NCBI GenBank assembly: GCA_963521405.1 | Contig: CAUQUY010000001.1 | Location: 58,938 to 122,937 of the forward strand | DNA length: 64,000 bases | Source: an uncultured Streptococcus sp. | Lineage (GTDB): Bacteria; Bacillota; Bacilli; Lactobacillales; Aerococcaceae | Direction: 5' to 3' | Part shown: positions 16,634 to 63,675 of the stretch, piece by piece | Numbering within the stretch: the stretch's first letter is position 1 | How the letters are laid out: every line of letters starts with the position of its first letter | The notes under the pieces: generated by a model | The model's input: only the letters and a program-made list of their open reading frames with translations | Databases searched by the model: none | What the model was told of the DNA's origin: nothing | Program-made: the position numbers and the translations under genes

Positions 16634-16646
16634 AAATTTGAGAGGC

Positions 16647-16686
16647 AGAACATTCATTACCAAATATGGTAATGAATGTTCTTTTC
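16647..16686 (+). terminator. rho-independent terminator of the aminotransferase gene
   Basis: AGAACATTCATTACCAAATATGGTAATGAATGTTCT followed by TTTC. Confidence 0.75.
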
Positions 16687-16781
16687 ATTGCCCAAACTCA
16701 TATTGTAATAGAGAATTCTTTTTGATAAAATGTGGGCAAATAGCGCAAAAAACACGTCAGAAGAAGAAAGTTGGGAGAAAA

Positions 16782-17599
16782 ATGGGTAATAAATCAGAAG
16801 ATTTAAATCAATTAGTGTTATCAACCTTATCAAAAACGACAAAACTACCTTTTGTGAAGGTTAGTCGTGAGGAATTTCTTAGAAAGGAATTTAAAGGAAG
16901 CGAATATTTAGATATCATTCTAAAAAATGGACCGCATTCCGTTTTTACGCCGGAAGCTTTACGAAAATTATTAATGACACTACGAAGAAAACAGCCTTCA
17001 CGTCTTTTGTGGCTGGATTACCTGCAAATCCGATTACAGCAACTCTTTCTGGAGGAGCAGATATCATTCAGTACTTTGGATTTTCACTTAATCTAGCACA
17101 GCAATTGGCTTATCTATTTGGAGAAGATGAGTTATTTACAGGTGAATTTGATGAATTGCCAGAAGAAGCAAAGGCTCGAATGATTGGTTATTTAGGAATT
17201 ATGCTCGGTGCAGGTGGGGCGGCAGCCTTGATTACAAAAGTTTCAAAAAATATCGCTGAAAAAGTCGGTAAGAAAGTCGTTACTACAGCTCTTACAAAGA
17301 AAATGTGGTATCCGATTATGAAGAAGATTGCTGCCTTTCTCGGCTGGAAGATTACGAAGATGTCTGTCCAAAAGACCGTTACAAAGGTCATCCCGGTCAT
17401 CGGCGGTGTGTTCTCTGGAGGATTGACTTACTACACGTTCAAACCTTCCGCAGAGCGTTTAGCTAATACCTTTGAAAAGTTATTAAAAGGCGAATTTATC
17501 GAAGAAGACGTCTCTATCAATGATCTGTCGGATGATTTTAAAGAGTACTTAGAATCTGATGAAGCCATCATTGACGGTGAATATACTGAAGTTGAATAA
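16782..17599 (+). pseudogene. EcsC-like protein gene split by a 1-nt frameshift at an A-run (about 16964-16967)
   Basis: The frame starting at ATG 16782 (MGNKSEDLNQ...TPEALRK) continues sensibly only in the -1 frame from 16967 (IINDTTKKTAFTSFVAGLPANPITATLSGG...). The two ORF-track entries 16638..17096 and 17009..17599 overlap. One extra A in CGAAAATT would restore a single roughly 272-aa ORF. The EcsC-like call rests on the Gly-rich loop and amphipathic C-terminal pattern and is tentative. Confidence 0.5.
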
Positions 17600-17605
17600 C
17601 AAATA

Positions 17606-17645
17606 AAAGAGCTAAAATTATCATATATGATAATTTTAGCTCTTT
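17606..17645. terminator. bidirectional terminator hairpin between convergent genes
   Basis: AAAGAGCTAAAATTATCATATATGATAATTTTAGCTCTTT is flanked by an A-run and a T-run. Confidence 0.75.
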
Positions 17646-17648
17646 TTC

Positions 17649-18170
17649 TTATTTCCAAATACTGTCGATAAAAGTGTCACGACCTGAAAGTCCGCGGTAA
17701 CGTTTATAGTGTTCTGGGTCCTTCTTGTAGAAATCTTGATGATATTCTTCTGCAGGATAGAACGTGCTTGCAGGCTCGATTTTTGTCACGATATCTTTTT
17801 TGAATCGTCCGCTGGCTTGCAAGGCTGCTTTTGAAGCTTCCGCAATCTTTCTTTGTTCTTCTGAGTGATAGAAGATGACTGGGCGATAGGAATCTCCTCG
17901 GTCCACGAATTGTCCCATTGCATCCGTTGGGTCCGTTTGTTGCCAGTAGACTTCTACGAGTTTTTCATAAGGGAATACTTCTGGGTCGAACGTGATTTGT
18001 ACGGCCTCTGTATGTCCTGTTGTTCCGCTACATACTTCCTTGTATGTCGGATTTTCTTTGTGGCCGCCTGTGTATCCTGAGATTACAGACTCGATTCCTG
18101 GTTGGCTGTCAAATGGCTTCACCATGCACCAGAAACAACCTCCTGCAAATGTAGCAATTTCTTTTGCCAT
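17649..18170 (-). CDS. msrA: peptide-methionine (S)-S-oxide reductase
   Basis: 173 aa with the active-site motif GGCFWC. Confidence 0.92.
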
Positions 18171-31439: not shown

Positions 31440-31712
31440 GTGTGGTGCTGGAAATGCCTCACACCCTGTATAGTTGAACTCGGGCTCACAGGACTGACGT
31501 CCACTTCCCAAACCATACGCACATCGTTTTTAACGATGCTTGCGTTGGTTTGGTCCAGTGGTTCAGTCCTGAGCGTTCGCCCTCATATCCTGTTTTAGTC
31601 GGGTTCGGCTTCGCAGAAATGGCGTGCGTTTCCCCAAACGTACGCACGACTCGTTCCGAGTCCTTTGCGTCGTTCGGGTCCAACGTTCCATTTCTGAGCG
31701 CGAAGCCTCACA
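31440..31712. repeat. type-2 mosaic intergenic repeat array, locus a (inverted orientation; overlaps the folT stop codon)
   Basis: Its reverse complement contains TAGGGTGTGAGGC-TTCGCGCTCAGAAATGGAACGTTGGAC...GAAACGCACGCCATTTCTGCGA...CAGGGTGTGAGGC. The same modules occur at 35.9, 38.5, 39.8 and 48.4 kb. Confidence 0.8.
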
Positions 31713-32247
31713 CCCTATATTTCTCTATTAAAATTTTCATGGTTTTGTTTGAAAAGAGCACGGTGAGGATGGCGGTATTCAATGGGAGCGAGATCATATT
31801 TTTCAGGATTCGCAGTGGCATAAAGGCGGCGAAGGCTTTTTGCGTCATCATATACACCCAGATTGAATTCAGTCCGAGGTTACAGAAGATGGTGACGAGT
31901 AATACTGTCATAAAGATTTGTTCCCATCTGAGTGGTCTCTTATATAAGAAGTATCCGTAGATGAGTCCTCCGACAAGGGCTGTGAATGTGTATCCGATGA
32001 AGAATTGTCCACTCTCTCCACGGAAGAAGTTTCCGAGGATATCGACTAGGATTCCCACAAGTGCTGCACGCCATGGTCCCAGCATCACCCCTGCGATAGC
32101 TGCTCCGATAAACCCAAAGCCGATTTGTACGTAGAGGCCGAATTTAATTGCCGGCAACATTTCCATCACAAGACGAATGGCTACGACCATCGCCATCACT
32201 GTAATATCCAGTGTTCTTTTTCGATTGTATTTCTTTGTATTTTCCAT
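31708..32247 (-). CDS. folT: folate-family ECF transporter S component
   Basis: ORF track 31708..32283, trimmed to MENTKKYN at 32247 (AAGGAG RBS). Multi-TM S-component preceded by a THF riboswitch. Confidence 0.8.
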   Translation of the reverse strand: MENTKKYNRKRTLDITVMAMVVAIRLVMEMLPAIKFGLYVQIGFGFIGAAIAGVMLGPWRAALVGILVDILGNFFRGESGQFFIGYTFTALVGGLIYGYFLYKRPLRWEQIFMTVLLVTIFCNLGLNSIWVYMMTQKAFAAFMPLRILKNMISLPLNTAILTVLFSNKTMKILIEKYRV

Positions 32248-32313: not shown

Positions 32314-32412
32314 ATGCAGCGAATGCGACTAAATTACCGCAATGTTTCCATTTTCGTCCCAGTGGCAACATTCCATCCGCCGGGCACTTAACGCAATAAA
32401 GTCTACTCTGAT
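32314..32412 (-). promoter_or_regulatory. THF (tetrahydrofolate) riboswitch
   Basis: The reverse strand reads CAGAGUAGACUUUAUUGCGUUAAGUGCCCGGCGGAUGGAAUGUUGCCACUGGGACGAAAAUGGAAACAUUGCGGUAAUUUAGUCGCAUUCGCUG. It carries the conserved THF-I blocks AGAGUAG, GCGUUAAGUG, GGGACG and CGCAUUCGCUG, upstream of folT. Confidence 0.8.
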
Positions 32413-35924: not shown

Positions 35925-36175
35925 CTAGGATATACAAGGATGCGAGACATCGCGCTCAGAAATGGAACGTTGGACTCGAACGCCGGAAGGAACGTGAAAC
36001 GTTCTGCGGACGTTTGAGGAAACGCACGCCATTTCTGCGATGGCGAGCTCAACTACAGGATGTGAGACAAAAAAGTCAACCACTGCGAAGAGCGCTCAGA
36101 AATGGAACGTTGGACCGGAACACCGGAAGGAACGTGAAACATTCTGCAAAATCCTTCACAGTGCGAAGGATTTGG
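35925..36175. repeat. type-2 mosaic intergenic repeat array, locus b
   Basis: Two units of AGGATG(C/T)GAGAC...GCGCTCAGAAATGGAACGTTGGAC(T/C)(C/G)GAAC(G/A)CCGGAAGGAACGTGAAAC(G/A)TTCTGC. The first continues GGACGTTTGAGGAAACGCACGCCATTTCTGCGATGGCGAGCTCAACTAC. The second ends in the hairpin AAATCCTTCACAGTGCGAAGGATTT. Confidence 0.85.
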
Positions 36176-36333
36176 GTGTGGGCATTACAATTTGCATAAA
36201 AGTATAAATCCCATAAGACATTGCCATATACATTTTTTAAGTTTCGATTCTTACCTCGAGGACCCAACTCCCCCCTTGCCTTTCTCTTCCATCTCCATTA
36301 CCATAGAACTAACAAGAAAAAGGAGTTTTTCAT

Positions 36334-37368
36334 ATGCACAAGAATCGTGTTCGTGGTTATAATAAACGTTTTTATCCCGGGGTGGCCTTAATCGTGGCGG
36401 CTATGCTTTGCCTTGTTTTCGCATTAACAAGACTGAACGTTCCATTATTACAACTACAAAATAAATATTTTAACCTAAAGGACATCACTAAAAATGAAGA
36501 TTCTATCTTAAAGGTCACTGGTATCGACAAGCACTCCGTCCAAAACTCGGACTTTGGAAAATGGTCGCTGTATATCGTCTCTTATTTAGAAAAAGATTCT
36601 CATGGAAACGAAACGACACAATACATCGGGTTAGAATTAGATGAAGAGACCGCCAAACAATTAATCGATAAGAAAAATACCTTAAGAGATCATCCTGAAA
36701 AAGTTGCGGGTACCTTTGTTGAGCCAGAATTTCACGATAAGAAAGTGATGGATTATAGCTATCGTACCCAAGATGCGATGGAAAAATACATCAAAGCCCC
36801 ACTTTCACGTCGTTATCAGAACTATTTATCGATTAAACCAGGAAAGGAAACACAAAAACTATTCCTAATCATCTCTCTCGTCCTCTTCATTCCAGGACTA
36901 GCACTCGTATATTTAGCGGAAAAACATCATCAATTTGCGACGTACTACAATAGTCTATTTGCAGGATATAAGAACACAGAAGCGTTAGTGGAAAGTCATC
37001 CAGAGTTGAAAGGCAAACGTTTATCTACATTATTGAATAAATCCGATTATATCGATGATACCTTAGGAGTGTATATCTATAAAAACTTTTTCTGCTCCAC
37101 TGTAAAAGGCTTAGAGATTTATGATTTAAACAAAACGAAGAGCGTACACCATTTCGAGAAAACATTTTACCCTGAAGAAGGTGGCAGCTTTATGAAGTCG
37201 TACCTTGTGTTCGCAACAAGTGATCCAGACGCCGTGGTTCGAAGTACGAAAGTTCAAATTAAAAATATCGGCGAAGAGACCGATGCACATCTACAGCCAT
37301 TCTTTGACAAATTGCGTCAAGATTTCCCAGCTATTGAGATTGAGGCTAAAAAAGAAAGTAAGAGATAA
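36334..37368 (+). CDS. two-TM membrane protein of unknown function, array paralog 1 (most divergent)
   Basis: 344 aa with an AAGGAG RBS. TM1 is VALIVAAMLCLVFAL and TM2 is LFLIISLVLFIPGLALVYL. The C-terminal blocks YIYKNFF...GLEIYDLNKTK and IKNIGEETDAHLQPFF are shared with paralogs 2-4. Confidence 0.8.
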   Translation: MHKNRVRGYNKRFYPGVALIVAAMLCLVFALTRLNVPLLQLQNKYFNLKDITKNEDSILKVTGIDKHSVQNSDFGKWSLYIVSYLEKDSHGNETTQYIGLELDEETAKQLIDKKNTLRDHPEKVAGTFVEPEFHDKKVMDYSYRTQDAMEKYIKAPLSRRYQNYLSIKPGKETQKLFLIISLVLFIPGLALVYLAEKHHQFATYYNSLFAGYKNTEALVESHPELKGKRLSTLLNKSDYIDDTLGVYIYKNFFCSTVKGLEIYDLNKTKSVHHFEKTFYPEEGGSFMKSYLVFATSDPDAVVRSTKVQIKNIGEETDAHLQPFFDKLRQDFPAIEIEAKKESKR

Positions 37369-37402
37369 GGAGTCCAACAGGATTCCTTATTTTTTTCAAC
37401 AC

Positions 37403-37440
37403 GAAATTATCATATATGATAATTACCATATATGATAATC
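37403..37440. promoter_or_regulatory. palindrome GAAATTATCATATATGATAATT plus an adjacent half-repeat ACCATATATGATAATC, upstream of the paralog-2 promoter
   Basis: A perfect AT-rich inverted repeat. The same sequence AAATTATCATATATGATAATTT forms the loop and top of the terminator at 17615-17636. Confidence 0.35.
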
Positions 37441-37461
37441 TCAGTATTCAAATAAAGTCAC

Positions 37462-37490
37462 TTGCAAAATGCTATTTTCTAGAGTATTAT
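37462..37490 (+). promoter_or_regulatory. putative sigma-A promoter of paralog 2
   Basis: TTGCAA, 17-nt spacer, TATTAT. Confidence 0.55.
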
Positions 37491-37532
37491 AGCTGTATTA
37501 TATATATATTATTGAAAATAGGTTTATATCAT

Positions 37533-38537
37533 ATGACAGAAAATCGTAATCACGGCTTTAGAATTCGTTTTTACTTCGGACTTATTTTAATTATTGCCGC
37601 TTGCGTCGTCGGATTTTTCAACTTCCAAAAACCAGACGCTAAAAAAATCTATGAAGACGGAAAAGCTCTTCCCTTCAGTTCAAGCAATGACGATAAAGAA
37701 TCAGCTCTAAAAATTACGGATATCTCAAAAGAGCCTGTTATCGAAGTAGATAAAGGAAAAACATATATCTACATTGTTGAATATGAAAAAGCAGGTACTT
37801 CAAAAGGAAAAGAACCTGGTTATATCGGTCTTGAATTAACAAAAGAAGATGCTGCAAAATTAGTCGCAAAAGCTGATACAATGCAAGACAATCCAGAATA
37901 TGTTTACGGTACAATCATTTATTCATACCGTAATAAACATGCGATTCAAAACTACAGCGACTTAATTACTCAAGCGTTCAAAAACTATAACCTTCTACAA
38001 GCTGGTGCAGACACACAATTCTACTTCTCTCAAACAGAAGCTAGCTCTGCAAAAAAAGGTGGATTAATGGTTGCGGCAGGTCTTACACTCGCAGGGCTTG
38101 TATTTATCGGTTTAGCGTTCTTGAAACGTAAAAAAGTTGGTGCGGCTTACGACGAAATGTACGCTGCTTACCCAGAATTACGTGGCAACTTAGATTTACT
38201 ACGTACAAACGCTACTTATGCGGATGACGAAACATATGTATACATCTACAAAAACCACTTCTTCACTACTTGGAGCGGCTTAGAAGTATACGACTTAACA
38301 AAAGCAAAACGCGTTTACCACTATCAGTTATCACACAAGAGATACGGAATTACAACGAACATTGAATCATTCCTAATCTTCTTGTCAGACGACAGATCAT
38401 ACAAAGGTAAGAAAAAGAAAATTGAAATTAAGAACGTCGGTGAAGAAACAGATGACTTCTTACAACCATTCTTCCGTGCAGTTGCCCAAGAATTCCCTGA
38501 CACAGCTGTGGGGTATGAAAATAATAGACCTTTCTAG
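37533..38537 (+). CDS. two-TM membrane protein of unknown function, array paralog 2
   Basis: ORF track 37416..38537, trimmed to MTENRNHGFRIRFYFG at 37533, which matches the paralog-3 N-terminus. 334 aa, ending GYENNRPF. Confidence 0.85.
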   Translation: MTENRNHGFRIRFYFGLILIIAACVVGFFNFQKPDAKKIYEDGKALPFSSSNDDKESALKITDISKEPVIEVDKGKTYIYIVEYEKAGTSKGKEPGYIGLELTKEDAAKLVAKADTMQDNPEYVYGTIIYSYRNKHAIQNYSDLITQAFKNYNLLQAGADTQFYFSQTEASSAKKGGLMVAAGLTLAGLVFIGLAFLKRKKVGAAYDEMYAAYPELRGNLDLLRTNATYADDETYVYIYKNHFFTTWSGLEVYDLTKAKRVYHYQLSHKRYGITTNIESFLIFLSDDRSYKGKKKKIEIKNVGEETDDFLQPFFRAVAQEFPDTAVGYENNRPF

Positions 38538-38680
38538 GATGTGAGAAAAAGCGTTCAGAGGCGATGACGGTTCGCAGTTTAGCCGTAAGCGGTCTGAAAG
38601 ACCGTGCGGACTAAACTCGAAAGGCTTGAGCCTCTGCTTTTTCGAGCTCAACTTCACAGGATGTGAGACATCGCTCACCT
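38535..38680. repeat. type-2 mosaic repeat, locus c (starts with the TAG stop codon of paralog 2)
   Basis: TAGGATGTGAGAAAAAGCG...GACCGTGCGGAC...GAAAGGCTTGAGCCTCTGCTTTTTCGAGCTCAACTTCACAGGATGTGAGACATCGCTCAC. The GACCGTGCGGAC/GAAAGGCTTGAG(C/T)CTCTGCTTTT module recurs at 48.5 kb. Confidence 0.8.
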
Positions 38681-38703
38681 AAACAAAATAACAGACACCA
38701 TAA

Positions 38704-38730
38704 AGGACTCGCACTGCGAGTCCTTTTTTA
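38704..38730 (+). terminator. rho-independent terminator after paralog 2 and its repeat
   Basis: AGGACTCGCACTGCGAGTCCT followed by TTTTTA. Confidence 0.8.
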
Positions 38731-38753
38731 GTTCATTTTCATTAAGAATCAAC

Positions 38754-38782
38754 TTGCAAAAAATCATTATCTAGAGTACTGT
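38754..38782 (+). promoter_or_regulatory. putative sigma-A promoter of paralog 3
   Basis: TTGCAA, 17-nt spacer, TACTGT. The spacer (..ATTATCTAGAG) parallels the paralog-2 promoter spacer (..TATTTTCTAGAG). Confidence 0.5.
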
Positions 38783-38820
38783 TAATTTAATCAATATTAT
38801 TGCAAAGGAGTTTTTATTTT

Positions 38821-39831
38821 ATGACAGAAAATCGTAACCACGGTTTTAATATCCGTTTTTATTTCGGAGTAATTTTATTAATTGTAGCTGCCGTCCTTGC
38901 TTTCTTCGCTCTCAAGAAAGTAGACGTTGACACATTGGTAAAGGACAATAAATTCTTTACTCACTATTCTTCAAAGGATGGCGATCAACTAGCTGTCAAA
39001 ATCACACAAATTACAGCTAACCCTGTAATTACCGTGGATAATGGAAATTCATACGTATACATTATTGAGTATGAAGATGAAGGTAAAGAGGCAAACGGCC
39101 AAAAAAAATACGCTTATGTAGGTCTTGAACTCGATAAAGAGACTGCTCAAAAATTAGTCGCAAAGAATAGTACTTTACCAGATAACCCTGAGATAATGGC
39201 CGTTACCCTTGTGGACTCTTCTAGAAACAAAGGAGCTATTCGAAACTACGACGACCTTATGCTCAATGGTTTCAAGAGCTATAATTTAATTGAACAAGAG
39301 ATTGAATATAGAGACTACTTATCTATCTCTGACAAATCATCTACTCAAAAAACTCAATTAATCATCGCTGCTGGTCTTACACTCGCAGGTCTTGTATTTA
39401 TCGGTTTAGCGTTCTGGAAACGTAAAAAAGTTAGTGCGGCTTACGATGAAATTTACGCTGCTTACCCAGAATTACGTGACAACTTGGATTTATTAAAAAC
39501 AAATGCAACTTATGTCGACGATGAAATGTTTGTATACATCTACAAAAACCACTTCTTCACTACTTGGAGCGGCTTAGAAGTATACGACATTACAAAAGCA
39601 AATCGAGTTTACCACTATCAAGTAACACACAAGAAATATGGAGTGACAACAAATATTGACTCATTCCTCATCTTCTTATCAGATGACAAATCATACCGTG
39701 GTAAGAAAACGAAGATTGCTATCCATAATATTGGGGAAGAAACCGATGACTTCTTACAATCATTCTTCCACACTGTAGCCCAAGAATTCCCTAACGTAGC
39801 AGTAGGATATGAAAATAATAGACCATTCTAG
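38821..39831 (+). CDS. two-TM membrane protein of unknown function, array paralog 3
   Basis: ORF track 38800..39831, trimmed to MTENRNHGFNIRFYFG at 38821. 336 aa. The TM2 and C-terminal half is nearly identical to paralog 2, even at the nucleotide level. Confidence 0.85.
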   Translation: MTENRNHGFNIRFYFGVILLIVAAVLAFFALKKVDVDTLVKDNKFFTHYSSKDGDQLAVKITQITANPVITVDNGNSYVYIIEYEDEGKEANGQKKYAYVGLELDKETAQKLVAKNSTLPDNPEIMAVTLVDSSRNKGAIRNYDDLMLNGFKSYNLIEQEIEYRDYLSISDKSSTQKTQLIIAAGLTLAGLVFIGLAFWKRKKVSAAYDEIYAAYPELRDNLDLLKTNATYVDDEMFVYIYKNHFFTTWSGLEVYDITKANRVYHYQVTHKKYGVTTNIDSFLIFLSDDKSYRGKKTKIAIHNIGEETDDFLQSFFHTVAQEFPNVAVGYENNRPF

Positions 39832-40135
39832 GATGTGAGACATCGCGCTCAGAAATGGAACGTTGGAAAATCCTTCACAGTGCGAAGGATTTGAAACAAA
39901 AGAAAAGGAACGTGAAACGTTCTGCGGACGTTTCGGGAAACGCACGCCATTTCTGCGATGGCGAGCTCGACTTCACAAGGATGTGAGCCCGAGCTCGACT
40001 AGGCAGAAAGACAGAAGCTAAGAATGACTTCACAGTGTGAAGTCATTCTGCTTCGTAGTCTTTCGTCCGCAAAGTTTATTAGACATTCTTGAATCACGAG
40101 TGATGAAAAGAATGTCAATAAACCACTGCGCTGAT
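39829..40135. repeat. type-2 mosaic repeat array, locus d (starts with the TAG stop of paralog 3)
   Basis: TAGGATGTGAGACATCGCGCTCAGAAATGGAACGTTGGAAAATCCTTCACAGTGCGAAGGATTT...GGAACGTGAAACGTTCTGCGGACGTTTCGGGAAACGCACGCCATTTCTGCGATGGCGAGCTCGACTTCACAAGGATGTGAGCCCGAGCTCGAC, then the TAGGCAGAAAGAC module (40000-40135), which is shared almost verbatim with 41358-41490. Confidence 0.85.
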
Positions 40136-40215
40136 GTGGCTGCGTATAATTATGAAGAGGTATCCCGAGAGCAAGTGGTTTCTGCGCTCTCCCCTTCTCC
40201 AGTACTAAACCCACC

Positions 40216-40247
40216 AAACCGACTCGCAATGCGGGTCGGTTTTTTTA
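40216..40247 (+). terminator. rho-independent terminator after paralog 3 and its repeats
   Basis: AAACCGACTCGCAATGCGGGTCGGT followed by TTTTTTT. Confidence 0.8.
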
Positions 40248-40292
40248 TATGCAAATCCAATAAATTCTCTCCATTAAAGTGAAAAATTTATT

Positions 40293-40321
40293 TTGCAGTT
40301 CAAAATTATTTGTGGTATATT
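40293..40321 (+). promoter_or_regulatory. putative sigma-A promoter of paralog 4
   Basis: TTGCAG, 17-nt spacer, TATATT. Confidence 0.55.
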
Positions 40322-40358
40322 ATATCTATCATATAACCCACTTTAAAGGAGAATAATC

Positions 40359-41360
40359 ATGACTGAAAAACGCAGTACTAAAACCATTATTGGCTTAATC
40401 ATCGCTGGAGTTCTTGCTATTATCGTTGCTCTTGGCGCTCTAGGATTCTTCCAGTTCTACCAAACTGCTGACAATTTATACAAACAAGGTAACGTCTTCG
40501 GTGAAGTACCAATGAAAGACGGAGCTTACACTGCTGTTAAGATTACTGGTTATGCCAAAAATCCTATTGCTACAATCGATGGAGGCACAAAATTATACTT
40601 AATCGAGTTTTCTAAAACAGATACAGATGATTTTGGTTATGCAAGTATTGAAGTCAAAGACGGCGATAAATTAATTGATAAATTAAACGCTGCCGATGAT
40701 CTTGTAGAAAACCCTGTTATCGTTGCTGCTAAAATCCGTAAATCCGGTGCAGACGGTGCCGTCCGTAACTATACTATTGAATTTAAAGATACAATTAGCG
40801 AAAACGAAACAATTTCAAAACTAGCCGAAACTGAATACTATGCTTCTGTTTACGAATTTGACAAAGACCGTCAATTCTCATATATCATTGCTGGTATCGC
40901 TGGTATTATTGCTCTAGTATTCTTCTACAGTGCTTTCGCAACACGTAAGAGCGAAGACAAAGCGTACAACGAATTATACAGTGCTTATCCAGAATTAAAC
41001 TACTCTATGGATTCTGTATTAGAAGATGCTACTTATGTTGATAACCAATTAGGAATCGTTTTATACAAACACCACCTACTTGCGACATACAAGAATTTCC
41101 AAGTATACGACTTAACAAAAGCTGAGCGTATCTACCACTACATCTACACTCAAAAATCTTACGGAATGACGGTTAGCCGTACTTCACAATTAATGGTGAT
41201 TACAAACGACAAATCATACCGTAGAAAAAAAACTGGCCTTGTGATTAACAACGTCGGTGACGAAACAGATGACTTACTACAACCATTCTTCTACGCAGTA
41301 AGCCAAGAATTCCCAGACATCCTATTAGGATTCGAAAACAAAAGCAAGAGACCGTTTTAG
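40359..41360 (+). CDS. two-TM membrane protein of unknown function, array paralog 4
   Basis: 333 aa with an AAGGAG RBS. Same architecture as the others. C-terminal blocks YSAYPEL, QVYDLTKAERIYHY, NNVGDETDDLLQPFF and SQEFPD, ending GFENKSKRPF. Confidence 0.85.
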   Translation: MTEKRSTKTIIGLIIAGVLAIIVALGALGFFQFYQTADNLYKQGNVFGEVPMKDGAYTAVKITGYAKNPIATIDGGTKLYLIEFSKTDTDDFGYASIEVKDGDKLIDKLNAADDLVENPVIVAAKIRKSGADGAVRNYTIEFKDTISENETISKLAETEYYASVYEFDKDRQFSYIIAGIAGIIALVFFYSAFATRKSEDKAYNELYSAYPELNYSMDSVLEDATYVDNQLGIVLYKHHLLATYKNFQVYDLTKAERIYHYIYTQKSYGMTVSRTSQLMVITNDKSYRRKKTGLVINNVGDETDDLLQPFFYAVSQEFPDILLGFENKSKRPF

Positions 41361-41490
41361 GCAGAAAGACAGAATCCAAGAATGATTTCACAGTGTGAAG
41401 TCATTCTGCTTCGTAGTCTTTCGCCCGCAAAGTTTATTAGGCATTCTTGAATCACGAGTGATGAAAAGAATGTCAATAAACCACTGCGTT
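41358..41490. repeat. type-2 repeat, TAGGCAGAAAGAC module (starts with the TAG stop of paralog 4)
   Basis: TAGGCAGAAAGACAGAATCCAAGAATGATTTCACAGTGTGAAGTCATTCTGCTTCGTAGTCTTTCGCCCGCAAAGTTTATTAGGCATTCTTGAATCACGAGTGATGAAAAGAATGTCAATAAACCACTGCG. Only a handful of substitutions separate it from 40000-40130. Confidence 0.85.
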
Positions 41491-41533
41491 GAAGTGTTTA
41501 GCTCAACTCCCCGTCTTCAAAACTAAATAAACC

Positions 41534-41571
41534 AAAAAAGAACCGCCATTTTCTCTATGGCGGTTCTTTTG
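41534..41571. terminator. bidirectional terminator hairpin (paralog 4 / FNT gene convergent)
   Basis: AAAAAAGAACCGCCATTTTCTCTATGGCGGTTCTTTTG. Confidence 0.8.
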
Positions 41572-41592: not shown

Positions 41593-42393
41593 TTAATCAA
41601 CATATGAAGTTTTTGTACGGTTTAAGAATGCATAAGCTAACCCGATTAAGATTCCTCCACCAATCCAGTTCCCAACAAATGATACTGACCAATGACGAAT
41701 AATATTTAGCCAATTCAAGGCATCGATTGAGTTTCCAACGGGTGAGAATTTCACGATAGAGAACGATGCAAAATTCGCCACTACGTGTTCATTTACTAGG
41801 TAAACGAACATAAAAATTGCAGAAATAACAATCCATAATTTTGCTTCTTCACTCTTGATTAAAATGAATGAAAGAATCGCAACGTTAACAAAGACATTTG
41901 CTAAAATACCTTCTAATAAAATTAGTTCGTTTGAACGAGACAATTTCAATTCAGCAACTTTTGCTATGAATTCATTGACAGTGATTCCGTTAAATGCTGA
42001 ACTATTTGCGAATAACGCTCCTATAAACATGGCCCCAACTAAATTAAATAGCGTACAATAGAATAAAATAGCAATTGCTTTAGACCATTTAATATGCTTT
42101 TGATAAGCTCCCGCTGTTAAGAACATCATATTTGAAGTAGCTAACTCTCCATTTAAAAATACAACATAAACTAATCCCCAAGTGAAGATAAATGCAAAAG
42201 TAAATCTACTTAGCGCAGGGTTTAATCCAGCTATAATTTGTGCTGCATGAGCTCCTGCAGCTGTACTCATCGTTAAAAATGCACCTGCAAACATTGAACG
42301 TAGTGCATAACGCATTTTACTCTCGTCAAAAAGTGCCTCCTTTTTTTGACATGCTTTTTCAAGTTTTGTATTGAACTCACTCGTGTGTTCCAT
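41593..42393 (-). CDS. formate/nitrite transporter (FNT) family protein
   Basis: 266 aa, six-TM FNT pattern (FAGAFLTMSTAAG, NGELATSNMMF, NWIGGGILIGLAY). Confidence 0.85.
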   Translation of the reverse strand: MEHTSEFNTKLEKACQKKEALFDESKMRYALRSMFAGAFLTMSTAAGAHAAQIIAGLNPALSRFTFAFIFTWGLVYVVFLNGELATSNMMFLTAGAYQKHIKWSKAIAILFYCTLFNLVGAMFIGALFANSSAFNGITVNEFIAKVAELKLSRSNELILLEGILANVFVNVAILSFILIKSEEAKLWIVISAIFMFVYLVNEHVVANFASFSIVKFSPVGNSIDALNWLNIIRHWSVSFVGNWIGGGILIGLAYAFLNRTKTSYVD

Positions 42394-42544: not shown

Positions 42545-42943
42545 ATGAAAAAAATTATTGGAATTTTGGCGACTGCACTCTTCTTAACAGCGTGTGGACA
42601 AGCCCCAACGACAACAACGACTACGGAAACAACCACTGCAACAACTGCAGCGCAATCGACAACAGCGACACTCAACATCACAAAAGACGGACAAGCCATT
42701 GAAGGTAGCCCGTTCACCCTTACCTTCAAAGAAGGCGATAATCTTCTAGACGTGATGAAAGCACAACTAAAAATCGTTGAGAAAGACGGCTTTATCTCTT
42801 CTATTAACGGTGTGGAACAAGTCCCAGCCGAAAACAAATACTGGTTATTCGACGTGAACGGTACGATGAGCCCTGTCGGTGCAAAAGAAGTCATCCTAAA
42901 AGCAGGCGACGTCATCGACTGGAAACTCAATAAACTTCAATAG
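42545..42943 (+). CDS. DUF4430-domain lipoprotein (transcobalamin-like fold family)
   Basis: 132 aa with the lipobox FLTAC, a Thr-rich linker and the block GFISSINGVEQVPAENKYWLFDVNG...GAKEVILKAGDVIDWKL, typical of DUF4430. Confidence 0.7.
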   Translation: MKKIIGILATALFLTACGQAPTTTTTTETTTATTAAQSTTATLNITKDGQAIEGSPFTLTFKEGDNLLDVMKAQLKIVEKDGFISSINGVEQVPAENKYWLFDVNGTMSPVGAKEVILKAGDVIDWKLNKLQ

Positions 42944-43589: not shown

Positions 43590-44618
43590 TTAATTCTTTT
43601 CCGGATTTCGAATAAATTCCCAAATCTTAGACACGTCGTCTAAACTCCTTGACACTTTTGTATTGACATCCACTGTCCCTTCTGCGTCATAAACATTGTG
43701 CACTCCGTACAGAACAATTTCATTTTTTGTATTTACATATACTAATTTTAGATTGATAACCCTGTCTTCTTTCGAGTCTCCTGGATAATTAACGAACAGC
43801 ACCTGTTTGATATCTTTAGGATAATGATTATAGAGCTGCTCTATCTTCGAATCATCCTTATCAAACTTTACTCCGGTCCCTGCATAATACGAGATCGTAT
43901 TATTCTCAAGAAGCACGGTATTTGCTATATCTTTTTGCAAATTGATTTGTAGCTTTGGAGCCATCTTAACGATACCCTTAGTATTCCAAAGATATACAAC
44001 ATCCTGTTTATCAATAAAATAGCTACCTTGAATATCTTTCACATTATCCATTATCTTTGTAAATTCCCCGTCATACTGCTTAAAATAAACAGTTCCGTCC
44101 TTCGTTAACGCAAAAAATCTCCAAGCTGAATCTCCCATCGATGATACTTTGACGACATCTTTAACATCTTCAATTTTCGTTAATTCTTTGAAATCTTTGT
44201 CGAATCCATTATATGGTTTTATCCCATAAGCATACAAGTAACCATCCTTATCAACTGCTAAGAGTCCCATTTGAGTTCCGGATGCCATAACGATATTGCT
44301 ACCGATTTTTTTCGGTTCGCCACCTTCTCCGATATACAAATCGTTATTATTATCAATCCAAACTTCTGAAGATACTACTTGTTTCACATTTTCAATATAT
44401 TTCGTTAGAGATTCGGTAAATTTATCGTAATTCTCCATTTGAACGCCTCTACCAATATAATAGACGTTCCCTTTATTAGACAGTACCTTTATTCCCTGGG
44501 ATGTTAAATCATACTGTGCGACTTCTTCTGCTCCAAGGTTTCCACATGCAGCAAAAATAACTACACACACCAACACTAGAAGCATCCCTAATAATCTTTT
44601 TGTTTTTTTCATTGTCAT
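43590..44618 (-). CDS. hypothetical lipoprotein with repeated beta-strand motifs (beta-propeller/RCC1-like appearance)
   Basis: 342 aa with the lipobox IFAACG and recurring motifs (AVDKDGYLYAYG, ALTKDGTVYF, DKQDVVYLW, NNDLYIG). AT-rich. Confidence 0.6.
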   Translation of the reverse strand: MTMKKTKRLLGMLLVLVCVVIFAACGNLGAEEVAQYDLTSQGIKVLSNKGNVYYIGRGVQMENYDKFTESLTKYIENVKQVVSSEVWIDNNNDLYIGEGGEPKKIGSNIVMASGTQMGLLAVDKDGYLYAYGIKPYNGFDKDFKELTKIEDVKDVVKVSSMGDSAWRFFALTKDGTVYFKQYDGEFTKIMDNVKDIQGSYFIDKQDVVYLWNTKGIVKMAPKLQINLQKDIANTVLLENNTISYYAGTGVKFDKDDSKIEQLYNHYPKDIKQVLFVNYPGDSKEDRVINLKLVYVNTKNEIVLYGVHNVYDAEGTVDVNTKVSRSLDDVSKIWEFIRNPEKN

Positions 44619-44651
44619 ACTTCTTTTTGATAATTTTCAAATGACGATTAC

Positions 44652-45698
44652 TTATTTTAGTTGATAATTCAATATATCTTTTTCTAATTTTTGGATAGGG
44701 TACTGCGCCTTCAACTTTATTTTTTGATTGTTACATCCAGCGTAGCCTTGCACGACATCCACTTGTGGAATGACCACCCAATCTCCAAGAACTTCTTGCG
44801 CGCCTTCTGTGTTTTCATCCAAAATGCACACGAAACGGTATTCTCTTTCGTGTTGCCACTCTTTGAATTTTGCAAAGGTCGCCTTAATATAGAAATTCAG
44901 ATTCGAATACGAGAATTGATTGCTATTGCTTCTCGTGTTCGGACGTTTATCAATATATTCCACCGGGCCGTATACACAAAGGCCATCTACCTTCAAGGAA
45001 TGGATTTTATCCAAAAGACTCGTATACGAATACTCCAGCGCATAACCCGCGTGGCTATTGGCGTAATAAGACCACATTAAAATATTATCTGCGGCGTGCG
45101 TAAAGCAAAACACACGGAAGAAATCCATCATCGAATGGCCGTCCGCGTAGTAGCAATTACAGTCAAACGGGTCGTTGAAATGCTTCGGATGACTAAACGA
45201 CACATTCCCTTCCACCACCTGATACGGATTCTTCTCAATCGTTTCCTTGGCATAGTACTTCACAAAAACTTGTCGTTCTTCTCGAATCGCTGCTTCTGCC
45301 TTTTTAAAATACGTCTCAACGTCTTCTTTAAATACCCCTTGAAACTGTTCGACTAACTGATCTGGTGCTAAAAATCCAAGTCTGATATTCTTCGCGAGCT
45401 GGTCATTGAACTCTTTATCCGCCTTTTCTACGTCAAACCCTTGCGGAATCTTCGTATTCGCATTTTGAATATACACAATCTTTTTACACTCTAGGTCAGC
45501 CGGTTCTTTCGTCGGTTGTTTAAACAGCGACACAAACACTTTCTCTTTTGTTTTGCGGTTGGCTACTAAAAAACAATTACTATCTAAGAAGGATTCCACC
45601 AAGCGGTACTCTTTATGCGTTTGTAAAAATGTCGCCTTAGCAATCAAATAACGATACAGCTCGATGTCCTCTTTTAAAATGATTTTCAACAACCCCAC
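44652..45698 (-). CDS. DUF2971-domain protein with an extra roughly 160-aa N-terminal region
   Basis: 348 aa. DUF2971-type blocks FSHPKHFNDPFDC, FCFTHAADNILMWSYYANSHAGYALEY and FAKFKEWQHEREYRFV. Confidence 0.7.
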   Translation of the reverse strand: MGLLKIILKEDIELYRYLIAKATFLQTHKEYRLVESFLDSNCFLVANRKTKEKVFVSLFKQPTKEPADLECKKIVYIQNANTKIPQGFDVEKADKEFNDQLAKNIRLGFLAPDQLVEQFQGVFKEDVETYFKKAEAAIREERQVFVKYYAKETIEKNPYQVVEGNVSFSHPKHFNDPFDCNCYYADGHSMMDFFRVFCFTHAADNILMWSYYANSHAGYALEYSYTSLLDKIHSLKVDGLCVYGPVEYIDKRPNTRSNSNQFSYSNLNFYIKATFAKFKEWQHEREYRFVCILDENTEGAQEVLGDWVVIPQVDVVQGYAGCNNQKIKLKAQYPIQKLEKDILNYQLK

Positions 45699-48382: not shown

Positions 48383-48625
48383 GATACGAGACCGAGCGCT
48401 CAGAAATGGAACGTTGGACCGGAACGCCGGAAGGAACGTGAAACGTTCTGCGGACGTTTCGGGAAACGCACGCCATTTCTGCGAGGTCGAGTTCAACTTC
48501 ATAGGCAGAAAGACCGTGCGGACAAAGCAAGAAAGGCTTGAGTCTCTGCTTTTGCGAACTCAACTACTAGGATACGAGACCGAACTCAACTTCACAGGCA
48601 GAAAGACAGAACACAAAAAACCAGC
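48380..48625. repeat. type-2 mosaic repeat array, locus f (starts with the TAG stop of the CBS gene)
   Basis: TAGGATACGAGACCGAGCGCTCAGAAATGGAACGTTGGACCGGAACGCCGGAAGGAACGTGAAACGTTCTGCGGACGTTTCGGGAAACGCACGCCATTTCTGCGAGGTCGAGTTCAACTTCATAGGCAGAAAGACCGTGCGGAC...GAAAGGCTTGAGTCTCTGCTTTTGCGAACTCAACTACTAGGATACGAGACCGAACTCAACTTCACAGGCAGAAAGACAGAAC. Confidence 0.85.
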
Positions 48626-57628: not shown

Positions 57629-57700
57629 CTGGGGTAGCTGGATTCGAACCAACGAATGACGGAGTCAAAGTCCGTTGCCTTACCGCTTGGCTATACCCCA
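57629..57700 (-). tRNA. tRNA-Gln (anticodon UUG)
   Basis: The reverse strand reads TGGGGTATAGCCAAGCGGTAAGGCAACGGACTTTGACTCCGTCATTCGTTGGTTCGAATCCAGCTACCCCAG. It folds as a cloverleaf with anticodon loop CTTTGAC and T-loop GGTTCGAATCC. No CCA is encoded. Confidence 0.92.
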
Positions 57701-57701
57701 A

Positions 57702-57785
57702 TGGTGGAGGGGGGCAGATTCGAACTGCCGAACCCGAAGGAGCGGATTTACAGTCCGCCGCGTTTAGCCACTTCGCTACCCCTCC
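57702..57785 (-). tRNA. tRNA-Tyr (anticodon GUA), long variable arm, CCA encoded
   Basis: The reverse strand reads GGAGGGGTAGCGAAGTGGCTAAACGCGGCGGACTGTAAATCCGCTCCTTCGGGTTCGGCAGTTCGAATCTGCCCCCCTCCACCA. Confidence 0.92.
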
Positions 57786-63399: not shown

Positions 63400-63427
63400 G
63401 TCAAATAGACTTGTTGAAATAGTGCCA

Positions 63428-63533
63428 TTTTCTCACATCTAGACTATACTATCGGTTCTGGAATTGCACCAGATCATGCCAATCGGCTCGTGGACTATAC
63501 CACCGGTCAGGAATTTCACCTTGCCCCGAAAAT
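63428..63533 (-). promoter_or_regulatory. FMN riboswitch (RFN element)
   Basis: The reverse strand reads UUUCGGGGCAAGGUGAAAUUCCUGACCGGUGGUAUAGUCCACGAGCCGAUUGGCAUGAUCUGGUGCAAUUCCAGAACCGAUAGUAUAGUCUAGAUGUGAGAAA. It matches the conserved RFN blocks (GGGGCAGGGUGAAAUUCC, ACCGGCGGUA, GGUG.AAUUCC, GCCGACAGUAUAGUCUGGAUG.GAGA). Confidence 0.9.
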
Positions 63534-63675
63534 GTTATTTATGTTTGTATTGTAGCACCTCACCACCACTTAGGCAATCTCTCTGCCTCAAAAAGGTGAT
63601 TTTATGCTGTTTCTCTAATAAAAAAACTTGGATGACGTTTATTATCATCCAAGTCCTGCTATTTGATTGATAAAA

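Follow-up and report, generated by a model that had tools for sequence, protein, structure and literature searches.

Families that combine two transmembrane (TM) helices with a PHb domain have been proposed to form oligomeric PH rings, which would cap membrane transporters or pores (Xu et al., PMC2817789), and DdE and DdF were found to be required for export of the leaderless bacteriocin EntDD14 (PMC8657885). Here we describe a tandem array of four paralogous genes, par1–par4, at positions 36334–41360 of a 64,000-nucleotide stretch of contig CAUQUY010000001.1 (the window), which belongs to a Granulicatella (adiacens-group) chromosome. The two-TM-plus-PHb proteins can be regarded as the closest characterised analogues of the array proteins in layout: as in the bPH_2 proteins YdbS/YdbT of B. 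subtilis and DdE/DdF of E. faecalis, a TM hairpin is followed by a predicted cytoplasmic PH-like β-sandwich and a C-terminal helix. Short relatives of the array proteins (~190 amino acids) are laid out like YdbS and DdE (141–159 amino acids), and both groups occur in Firmicutes. The array proteins differ by a domain of ~135 amino acids inserted in the hairpin loop, and the array lacks a ydbS–ydbT-type gene pair and any linkage to bacteriocin or ABC-export genes, both in the window flanks and in seven genomic contexts of relatives. Surface and immunity paralogs of Firmicutes, for example those located beside type VII secretion toxins, provide another comparison, as they form tandem arrays with copy-number change, mosaic alleles and recombination. 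The Granulicatella array may be likened to such polymorphic immunity arrays in its tandem same-strand paralogs, varying copy number, mosaic alleles and recombination between copies; in contrast to them, no toxin or secretion genes are present in the flanks examined, each of its genes has a terminator of its own, and its proteins show no relation to known immunity families. As detailed below, the array evolves in a fixed chromosomal slot by tandem duplication and loss, replacement of whole ectodomain cassettes and C-terminal gene conversion.

The open reading frames (ORFs) of the window include four consecutive genes on the + strand, par1 (36334–37368, 344 amino acids), par2 (37533–38537, 334), par3 (38821–39831, 336) and par4 (40359–41360, 333), at exactly the coordinates given by an earlier reading made without database searches (the sequence-only reading). 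For par2, an alternative ATG is located upstream at 37416, and both the orthologues and the family profile favour the start at 37533. The four proteins can be aligned end to end, the closest pair being par2/par3 and the most diverged member par1 (26–36% identity to the other three), and they are true paralogs sharing one architecture. This had been proposed as a common two-TM plan, which is borne out by two hydrophobic segments per protein in hydropathy plots (residues ~8–37 and ~171–200) and by the two corresponding helices of an AlphaFold model (9–31 and 172–212). The predicted order is a cytoplasmic N-terminus with the short conserved motif M-T/K-E-x-R-N-x-G, TM1, an extracytoplasmic domain of ~135 residues (the ectodomain), TM2, and a cytoplasmic domain of ~130 residues. 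The ectodomain is thus predicted to be extracytoplasmic and both protein ends cytoplasmic; the positive-inside rule favours this N-in/C-in orientation in 35 of 43 family members (mean K+R of 6.35 inside vs 3.77 outside) and is weak for the four window proteins taken alone. The conserved C-terminal blocks noticed earlier, AAYPEL, YIYKNHFF..GLEVYDLTKA, NVGEETDD.LQPFF and QEFP, are present in the array proteins, but par1 is an outlier that has a 10-residue insertion within AAY..PEL and lacks the GYENNRPF ending. In the family alignment, the YPEL motif is nearly invariant and is carried on a long helix continuing TM2. Most of the invariant positions are aromatic or structural, to which an N-x-G-x-x-T-D loop is added. 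No conserved catalytic-type residue is apparent among them, which makes binding or scaffolding likelier than enzymatic activity.

The sequence-only reading could assign the proteins to no characterised family. Searches of par1–par4 against Pfam, NCBIfam, PADLOC and PHROGs likewise gave nothing above threshold, and DUF6709 (PF20456), whose Pfam gathering cut-off is 27 bits, was not listed for any window protein even at E ≤ 1; it was also missed with the C-terminal crop of par2. A word-indexed search returned only 29 clusters, none of them named, and the output of another with a broad alignment was dominated by close relatives. An exhaustive profile search over 1.84 billion representatives (clusters at 50% identity) gave 181 proteins at E ≤ 1e-3, and 98 of these reached E ≤ 1e-10. 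These relatives fall into three groups, namely full-length proteins of 300–350 amino acids, short forms of ~190 amino acids, and one tandem double of the short form. A Pfam scan linked 8 of 49 diverse members to DUF6709, and 11 of 33 C-terminal crops matched it at E ≤ 1. The bridge is provided by P0155 from a Clostridiaceae bacterium, which passes the DUF6709 cut-off with 43.5 bits over profile positions 7–337 of 339 and is itself matched by the Granulicatella profile at E = 6.2e-7. When a Granulicatella-only profile was aligned by hhalign with the group containing P0155, a probability of 99.95% was obtained (E = 4.7e-38, 307 of 334 columns). Furthermore, a member from Streptococcus minor is named "DUF6709 family protein" by NCBI. 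By profile homology, the window proteins are thus placed as a divergent Granulicatella/Streptococcus branch of the DUF6709 superfamily, which answers the question of placement, though with a family that is itself uncharacterised and already catalogued as such. No confident match to a characterised housekeeping family was obtained. The window proteins share with DUF6709 full-length homology (N-motif, TM1, ectodomain, TM2, YPEL helix and β-rich C-terminal domain) as well as the FP.I..G ending; they differ in missing the Pfam model, and in a tandem expansion to 2–5 copies with ectodomain cassette exchange, which is undescribed for the family. One UniRef relative is labelled "TPM domain-containing protein", but neither a Pfam TPM match at E ≤ 0.01 nor a TPM structure in Foldseek was found, and the label was rejected.

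The short forms are informative on the domain organisation. In P0057, P0061 and P0119, the N-motif, TM1, TM2 and the C-terminal domain are all present, and the TM helices stand directly before the latter. A short form matches only profile positions 2–35 and 159–316, so that precisely the ectodomain is absent. Since natural proteins exist without exactly this part, the ancestral core is a TM hairpin plus a PH-like domain, and the ectodomain is an optional, exchangeable module inserted in the hairpin.

A full-length model of par2 was predicted by AlphaFold2 as a single chain from a 15-sequence alignment, and showed a mean predicted local distance difference test score (pLDDT) of 86.3. It consists of helix 9–31 (TM1), a mixed domain at 36–166 (ectodomain, ~34–171), a continuous helix 172–212 comprising TM2 and a cytoplasmic extension bearing YPEL, and a C-terminal domain of ~110 residues (~221–320) with seven strands at 229–299 and a capping helix at 303–320. 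For cleaner fold matches, a separate model of the C-terminal domain was made from 33 sequences (pLDDT 88.9, predicted template-modelling score 0.81; strands 27–97 followed by helix 101–118). Its top Foldseek matches all belonged to the PH superfold, including the middle domains of Pob3/SSRP1 (probability 0.91–0.95) and the FERM-F3 domain of SNX17, with ~93–102 aligned columns and a root-mean-square deviation of 3.9–4.7 Å for the best ones; no PHb structure was among the top 50. The modelled C-terminal domain is therefore described as PH-like at the level of fold resemblance, not homology, and the eukaryotic proteins among its best matches carry no functional inference. For the ectodomain, DSSP gave strands at 56–64, (70–72), 77–85, 95–102, 122–130 and 159–166 and helices at 104–111 and 141–151. 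This order, b1-b2-b3-a-b4-a-b5, resembles the OB order b1-b2-b3-helix-b4-b5, with a second helix between b4 and b5. A whole-protein Foldseek search against the PDB, otherwise uninformative owing to the flexible domain arrangement, gave weak matches to SSB and to the AB5-toxin B subunits PltB and SubB (E 0.16–0.6, TMt 0.33–0.42), which were ascribed to the ectodomain by elimination, as the C-terminal-only search had given PH folds, and by strand order. These observations point to an ectodomain that is OB-like in topology, again as a fold-level resemblance and not homology. No solved structure in the PDB matched the models significantly in Foldseek, and a profile search of PDB sequences yielded TM-helix noise only.

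A mosaic relation between par2 and par3, with nearly identical C-terminal halves and ectodomains only about half identical, had been noticed by eye. The identities confirm it: the ectodomains share 45% of amino acids and 56% of nucleotides, vs 81% and 84% for TM2 plus the C-terminus. The proportion of synonymous differences (pS) is 0.06–0.18 at alignment columns 181–240 vs 0.7–0.86 in the ectodomain, so that divergence along the genes is far from uniform. At sites with identical amino acids, identical codons were used in 32 of 60 cases in the ectodomain vs 102 of 131 in the C-terminal half (Fisher p = 0.001), and the longest run of identical codons was 22 (permutation p = 0.02, or 0.07 when only the C-terminal half is considered). 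Such a drop in synonymous divergence argues for recombination or gene conversion beyond purifying selection alone. A tract of 300 nucleotides that spans TM2 and the N-proximal half of the C-terminal domain (38046–38345 in par2 and 39340–39639 in par3, both +; 86% identity, locally 93–95%) is the candidate gene-conversion tract. Recombinant alleles were also found in metagenomes, P0015 combining a par3-type ectodomain with a par2-type C-terminus and P0005 showing the reverse. On the synonymous-site and recombinant evidence, the C-terminal half of par2/par3 is homogenised by recombination or gene conversion, the latter having been suggested in the sequence-only reading. The evolutionary part of that reading is largely right, and the pattern is real and exceeds chance.

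A genome scan detected 37 loci, all from Granulicatella or from otherwise-labelled metagenome-assembled genomes (MAGs) or isolates at 90–99% identity. The array always lies between genes for an OppA-like substrate-binding protein (SBP5) and an FNT transporter, and the flanking proteins are mostly 95–100% identical (SBP5, 93–100% in most loci). The copy number varies from 2, in G. adiacens 20925_1_19, to 5, so that an invariant four-gene array in all relatives does not exist. Three-copy arrays comprise par1, par2 and par4, four-copy arrays were also found, and five-copy arrays have an additional copy between par1 and the SBP gene. A number of copies appear broken, as pseudogenes. Alleles of one slot can carry different ectodomain cassettes on C-termini that are nearly identical. 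For par4, ectodomain identity is 64–66%, 82–85% or 98%, with the C-terminus at 91–98%. In the par3 slot of loci L027 and L028, a novel ectodomain (dS 2.83) is combined with a 97% identical par3 C-terminus (dS 0.12), while par1 of L019 shows the inverse, with 96% in the ectodomain and 56% in the C-terminus. Sliding windows placed the exchange breakpoints at the borders of TM1 and TM2. Among 76 unique genes, the ectodomains form 18, 11, 10 and 8 classes at 90, 80, 70 and 60% identity, and the C-termini 9, 8, 6 and 3. Each of two C-terminal classes was found with three different ectodomain classes. The dN/dS ratio (omega) was 0.1–0.57 for the ectodomain vs 0.03–0.23 for the C-terminus. The earlier picture of a protein conserved inside and diversified outside is hence retained as regards a variable ectodomain and a constant C-terminus, but positive selection on the ectodomain was not demonstrated, as omega stayed under 1 in each region; where it locally exceeded 1 in par2, the counts were tiny, e.g., 6 nonsynonymous to 0 synonymous changes. 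The sequence comparisons suggest that ectodomain variability reflects relaxed constraint together with cassette exchange.

Several records in the scan carry unexpected organism labels. Loci L003 and L036 (Carnobacterium maltaromaticum 757_CMAL) and L016 and L027 (Streptococcus sp. 263_SSPC) show 90–99% identity to the Granulicatella locus and share its synteny, and the same holds for many MAGs labelled Streptococcus or Carnobacterium. These labels are probably wrong, owing to mis-binning, contamination or misidentification. Loci L013 and L021 come from one MAG (DRR214961_bin.31), each with a complete array and the same flanks but different alleles, and probably represent two strains mixed in one bin, not a true second locus.

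Named relatives occur in Streptococcus hillyeri, caledonicus, oricebi, dentiloxodontae, macacae, minor, oriscaviae, acidominimus and gordonii; others come from an Aerococcaceae MAG, a Clostridiaceae isolate and two further solitary paralogs in Granulicatella. In the seven contexts examined in different taxa, the gene is solitary (a tandem pair in L043), and no neighbour is common between taxa; examples are a position between purK and purL (Granulicatella), one upstream of uvrC, one beside a TetR gene, and one between ATP-cone and GTPase/RNase HII genes. The array itself is flanked by AraC, GNAT and OppA-like SBP genes on one side and by FNT, DUF4430, ECF S-component, lipoprotein and DUF2971 genes on the other. 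Toxin or secretion-system genes are absent from these flanks, which were annotated over ~4 kb on each side, and the frame is the same in all Granulicatella loci.

From these results, we tentatively consider that the array may encode a polymorphic module for envelope recognition or protection, built on a conserved membrane-anchored PH-like core; this is the reading favoured among those weighed here, and is possible rather than probable. As no partner gene is conserved, the proteins would act alone, without a dedicated partner. Several variable outer domains on one constant inner domain suggest diverse external ligands and one common function: each ectodomain variant would bind a different extracellular or envelope-borne ligand, for which membrane-active peptides such as bacteriocins of the oral community are the leading candidates, and the invariant PH-like unit would have a single shared task close to the membrane. 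By analogy with what was proposed for YdbS/YdbT and DdE/DdF in peptide export or resistance, this unit may oligomerise under the membrane. A number of observations weigh against such a role. No robust omega above 1 was found in pairwise or sliding-window dN/dS, so that an arms race is not demonstrated. The compared genomes are different species-level representatives, many of them MAGs; part of the array variation is therefore interspecific, and assembly may have influenced a few of the copy-number calls. In the window flanks and the seven contexts, no gene for a bacteriocin, ABC transporter or toxin is a consistent neighbour, and several relatives lie within housekeeping operons (e.g., purK/purL), which fits a general cellular role equally well. 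The Foldseek matches of the C-terminal domain are non-significant (E 0.015 or worse, TM-score ~0.4, identity 10–18%), and no bPH family of Pfam matched at E up to 1; the only recurrent matches, to DUF6585 and DUF7270, were weak. The ectodomains are acidic (median pI 4.8), which is common among Gram-positive surface proteins, and the low pI is hence weak evidence. Finally, no papers on DUF6709 or PF20456 were found in the literature, and no member of the family has been studied.

The same data can be read as those of a housekeeping or structural membrane protein, for instance in envelope biogenesis or membrane organisation, with a loosely constrained ectodomain that diverges by drift and homologous recombination among duplicates and has no ligand-specific variants. 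Omega values below 1 everywhere, solitary relatives among housekeeping genes such as purK/purL, uvrC, and the ATP-cone and GTPase/RNase HII genes, and a conserved chromosomal slot with no mobile or defence context are all consistent with it. We nevertheless judge it rather unlikely, as a patchy distribution (181 clusters at 50% identity among the 1.84 billion representatives) and a copy number of 2–5 with apparent pseudogenes are not what this reading leads one to expect. Deep ectodomain classes that break exactly at domain borders while the flanks remain 95–100% identical also speak against it, and pure drift is hard to square with the modular combination of a single C-terminal class with three classes of ectodomain. 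A transmembrane sensor, in which a ligand signal received by the ectodomain is passed through TM2 and the long helix to the PH-like domain and controls an unlinked cytoplasmic partner, would explain why TM2 runs into helix 172–212 with its nearly invariant YPEL and a conserved cytoplasmic domain, and why a conserved N-terminal cytoplasmic motif and several variable inputs accompany one conserved output. However, Pfam and NCBIfam scans revealed no recognisable kinase, cyclase, anti-sigma or DNA-binding output domain, no regulator gene is conserved nearby in the seven contexts, and short forms without the sensor domain are common, suggesting that the core works without external input; such a sensor, an idea already raised in the sequence-only reading, is improbable.

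Phage-related roles had been put forward in the sequence-only reading, in the form of variable phage receptors or decoys, superinfection-exclusion modules or abortive-infection (Abi) membrane effectors. A hypervariable predicted surface domain and a varying copy number would suit these ideas, as would the variable region located 2–4 kb downstream, in which DUF2971 and lipoprotein paralogs are encoded. They received no support from the searches made: PADLOC gave 0 matches for the window proteins, PHROGs gave nothing below E = 0.04, tblastn searches of 50,697 phage records and 72,556 plasmids found no homologue, and a BFVD search for viral folds gave nothing at E ≤ 0.001. No integrase, prophage gene or mobile context was present near the array in the flanks examined, the chromosomal slot is fixed, and relatives occur in housekeeping contexts. 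Of the explanations weighed here, a phage-related role is the least likely.

Returning to envelope recognition or protection, a broader proposal, which we regard as unlikely at present, is that DUF6709-like proteins constitute an unrecognised class of envelope receptor or immunity proteins in Gram-positive bacteria, in which an OB-like cassette would provide specificity and a PH-like ring would protect or export. If this were true, the ectodomain cassettes would be specific for different bacteriocins, toxins or phages, and the array would be a recombining specificity library, like the polymorphic immunity islands but with a new combination of folds. Common in the mouth as a commensal, Granulicatella also causes endocarditis, and bacteriocins and phages abound in the community around it. 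With its predicted surface cassettes shuffled on a constant cytoplasmic module, this chromosomal hot spot is a candidate for determining how strains compete or how susceptible they are. The present data also give a first evolutionary and structural handle on DUF6709, a family found in Streptococcus gordonii and other streptococci as well, and the short and long forms, allele classes and domain boundaries make its function directly testable.

The array genes are separated by signals for transcription. Promoter-like sites on the + strand were located upstream of par2 (37462–37490, TTGCAA-17-TATTAT), par3 (38754–38782, TTGCAA-17-TACTGT) and par4 (40293–40321, TTGCAG-17-TATATT, with an extended -10 TG upstream), and the par3 site has ACTTGCAAAA...TCTAGAGTA in common with that of par2. 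The earlier assignment of a promoter with the pattern TTGCA(A/G)-17-TAnnnT to each of par2–par4 therefore stands; for par1, no recognisable sigma-70 promoter was found within 120 nucleotides upstream. A strong hairpin with a U-run follows all four genes (z-scores −4.6 to −7.1), in agreement with the earlier statement that terminators separate the promoters from the preceding gene. The par1 terminator (37364–37397, +) overlaps the TAA stop codon and is followed by seven U (−15.6 kcal/mol, z −6.5); it was not picked up by a simple terminator scan and was seen in the analysis of hairpin energies and z-scores. The par2 terminator (38702–38726, +; −16.7 kcal/mol) is followed by a U-run, the one closing the par3 unit (40216–40242, +; −18.4 kcal/mol) by seven U, and a bidirectional terminator (41536–41570; −21.4 kcal/mol) serves par4 and the convergent FNT transporter gene. 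With a terminator after each gene and promoter-like sites for three, par1–par4 are by sequence predicted to be four monocistronic, independent transcription units.

Repeats beginning at the stop codons of par2–par4 had been described as one type. They do start in the TAG codons of these genes, but belong to two sequence families, type A after par2 and par3 and type B after par4. Type A mosaic repeats (all +) are located upstream of par1 (35932–36190, two sub-copies 140 nucleotides apart), after par2 (38536–38680) and after par3 (39830–39995), the latter two starting inside the stop codon. Further type A modules occur at 31679–31716 (−) and 48398–48418 (+), so that type A repeats form a dispersed intergenic family with a concentration around the array. 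This family is built of the hairpin modules AGGATGTGAGACATCGC, GCTCAGAAATGGAACGTTGGA, GAACGTGAAACGTTC and AAAATCCTTCACAGTGCGAAGGATTTG, and may be a BOX/REP-like element of Granulicatella. Type B is a repeat of 139 nucleotides containing the palindrome AGAATGACTTCACAGTGTGAAGTCATTCT; its copy before par4 (40000–40138, +) is 95% identical to the one that starts at the par4 stop codon (41358–41496, +). The two copies form a direct-repeat pair bracketing par4 and its promoter, which could mediate excision or duplication of this gene. More generally, the dispersed mosaic repeats at gene ends may supply the substrate for recombination in the array. Rfam contained no RNA family matching the array or its repeats. 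An AT-rich palindrome or hairpin at 37403–37442 contains TTATCATATATGATAA and TTACCATATATGATAA; the exact 16-bp palindrome TTATCATATATGATAA thus lies upstream of the par2 promoter, where the second of two copies has one mismatch. The palindrome recurs exactly at 17618 (within 17600–17650), and 4 matches were observed vs a mean of 0.48 and a largest value of 3 in shuffled sequences. A role of TTATCATATATGATAA as a shared operator of a common regulator is unsupported, as the copy at 17618 forms the apex of a long hairpin, which serves as a bidirectional terminator for convergent genes.

Allelic variation was also observed downstream of the array. The FNT transporter (41593–42393, −) falls into two allele classes across Granulicatella, with 98–99% vs 72–77% amino-acid identity, and so does the DUF4430 protein (42545–42943, +), with 96–100% vs 82–85%. 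As their neighbours stay at 93–100%, mosaic recombination appears to extend beyond the array. At 43590–45698, a gene for a 342-residue lipoprotein with no Pfam match and the DUF2971 gene form a second variable spot, which was compared at loci L005, L007, L013, L021, L024 and L033: the lipoprotein is missing in some genomes, and in others 1–2 more paralogs (~47% identity) follow DUF2971. On the other side, Rfam identified a THF riboswitch (32315–32412, −) just upstream of the AraC/GNAT genes flanking the array. An FMN riboswitch (63423–63537, −) and two tRNA genes (57629–57785, −) were located elsewhere in the window. At 16638–17599 (+), two overlapping ORFs in different frames (152 and 196 amino acids) resemble a single gene interrupted by a frameshift, possibly a pseudogene or the result of a sequencing error.

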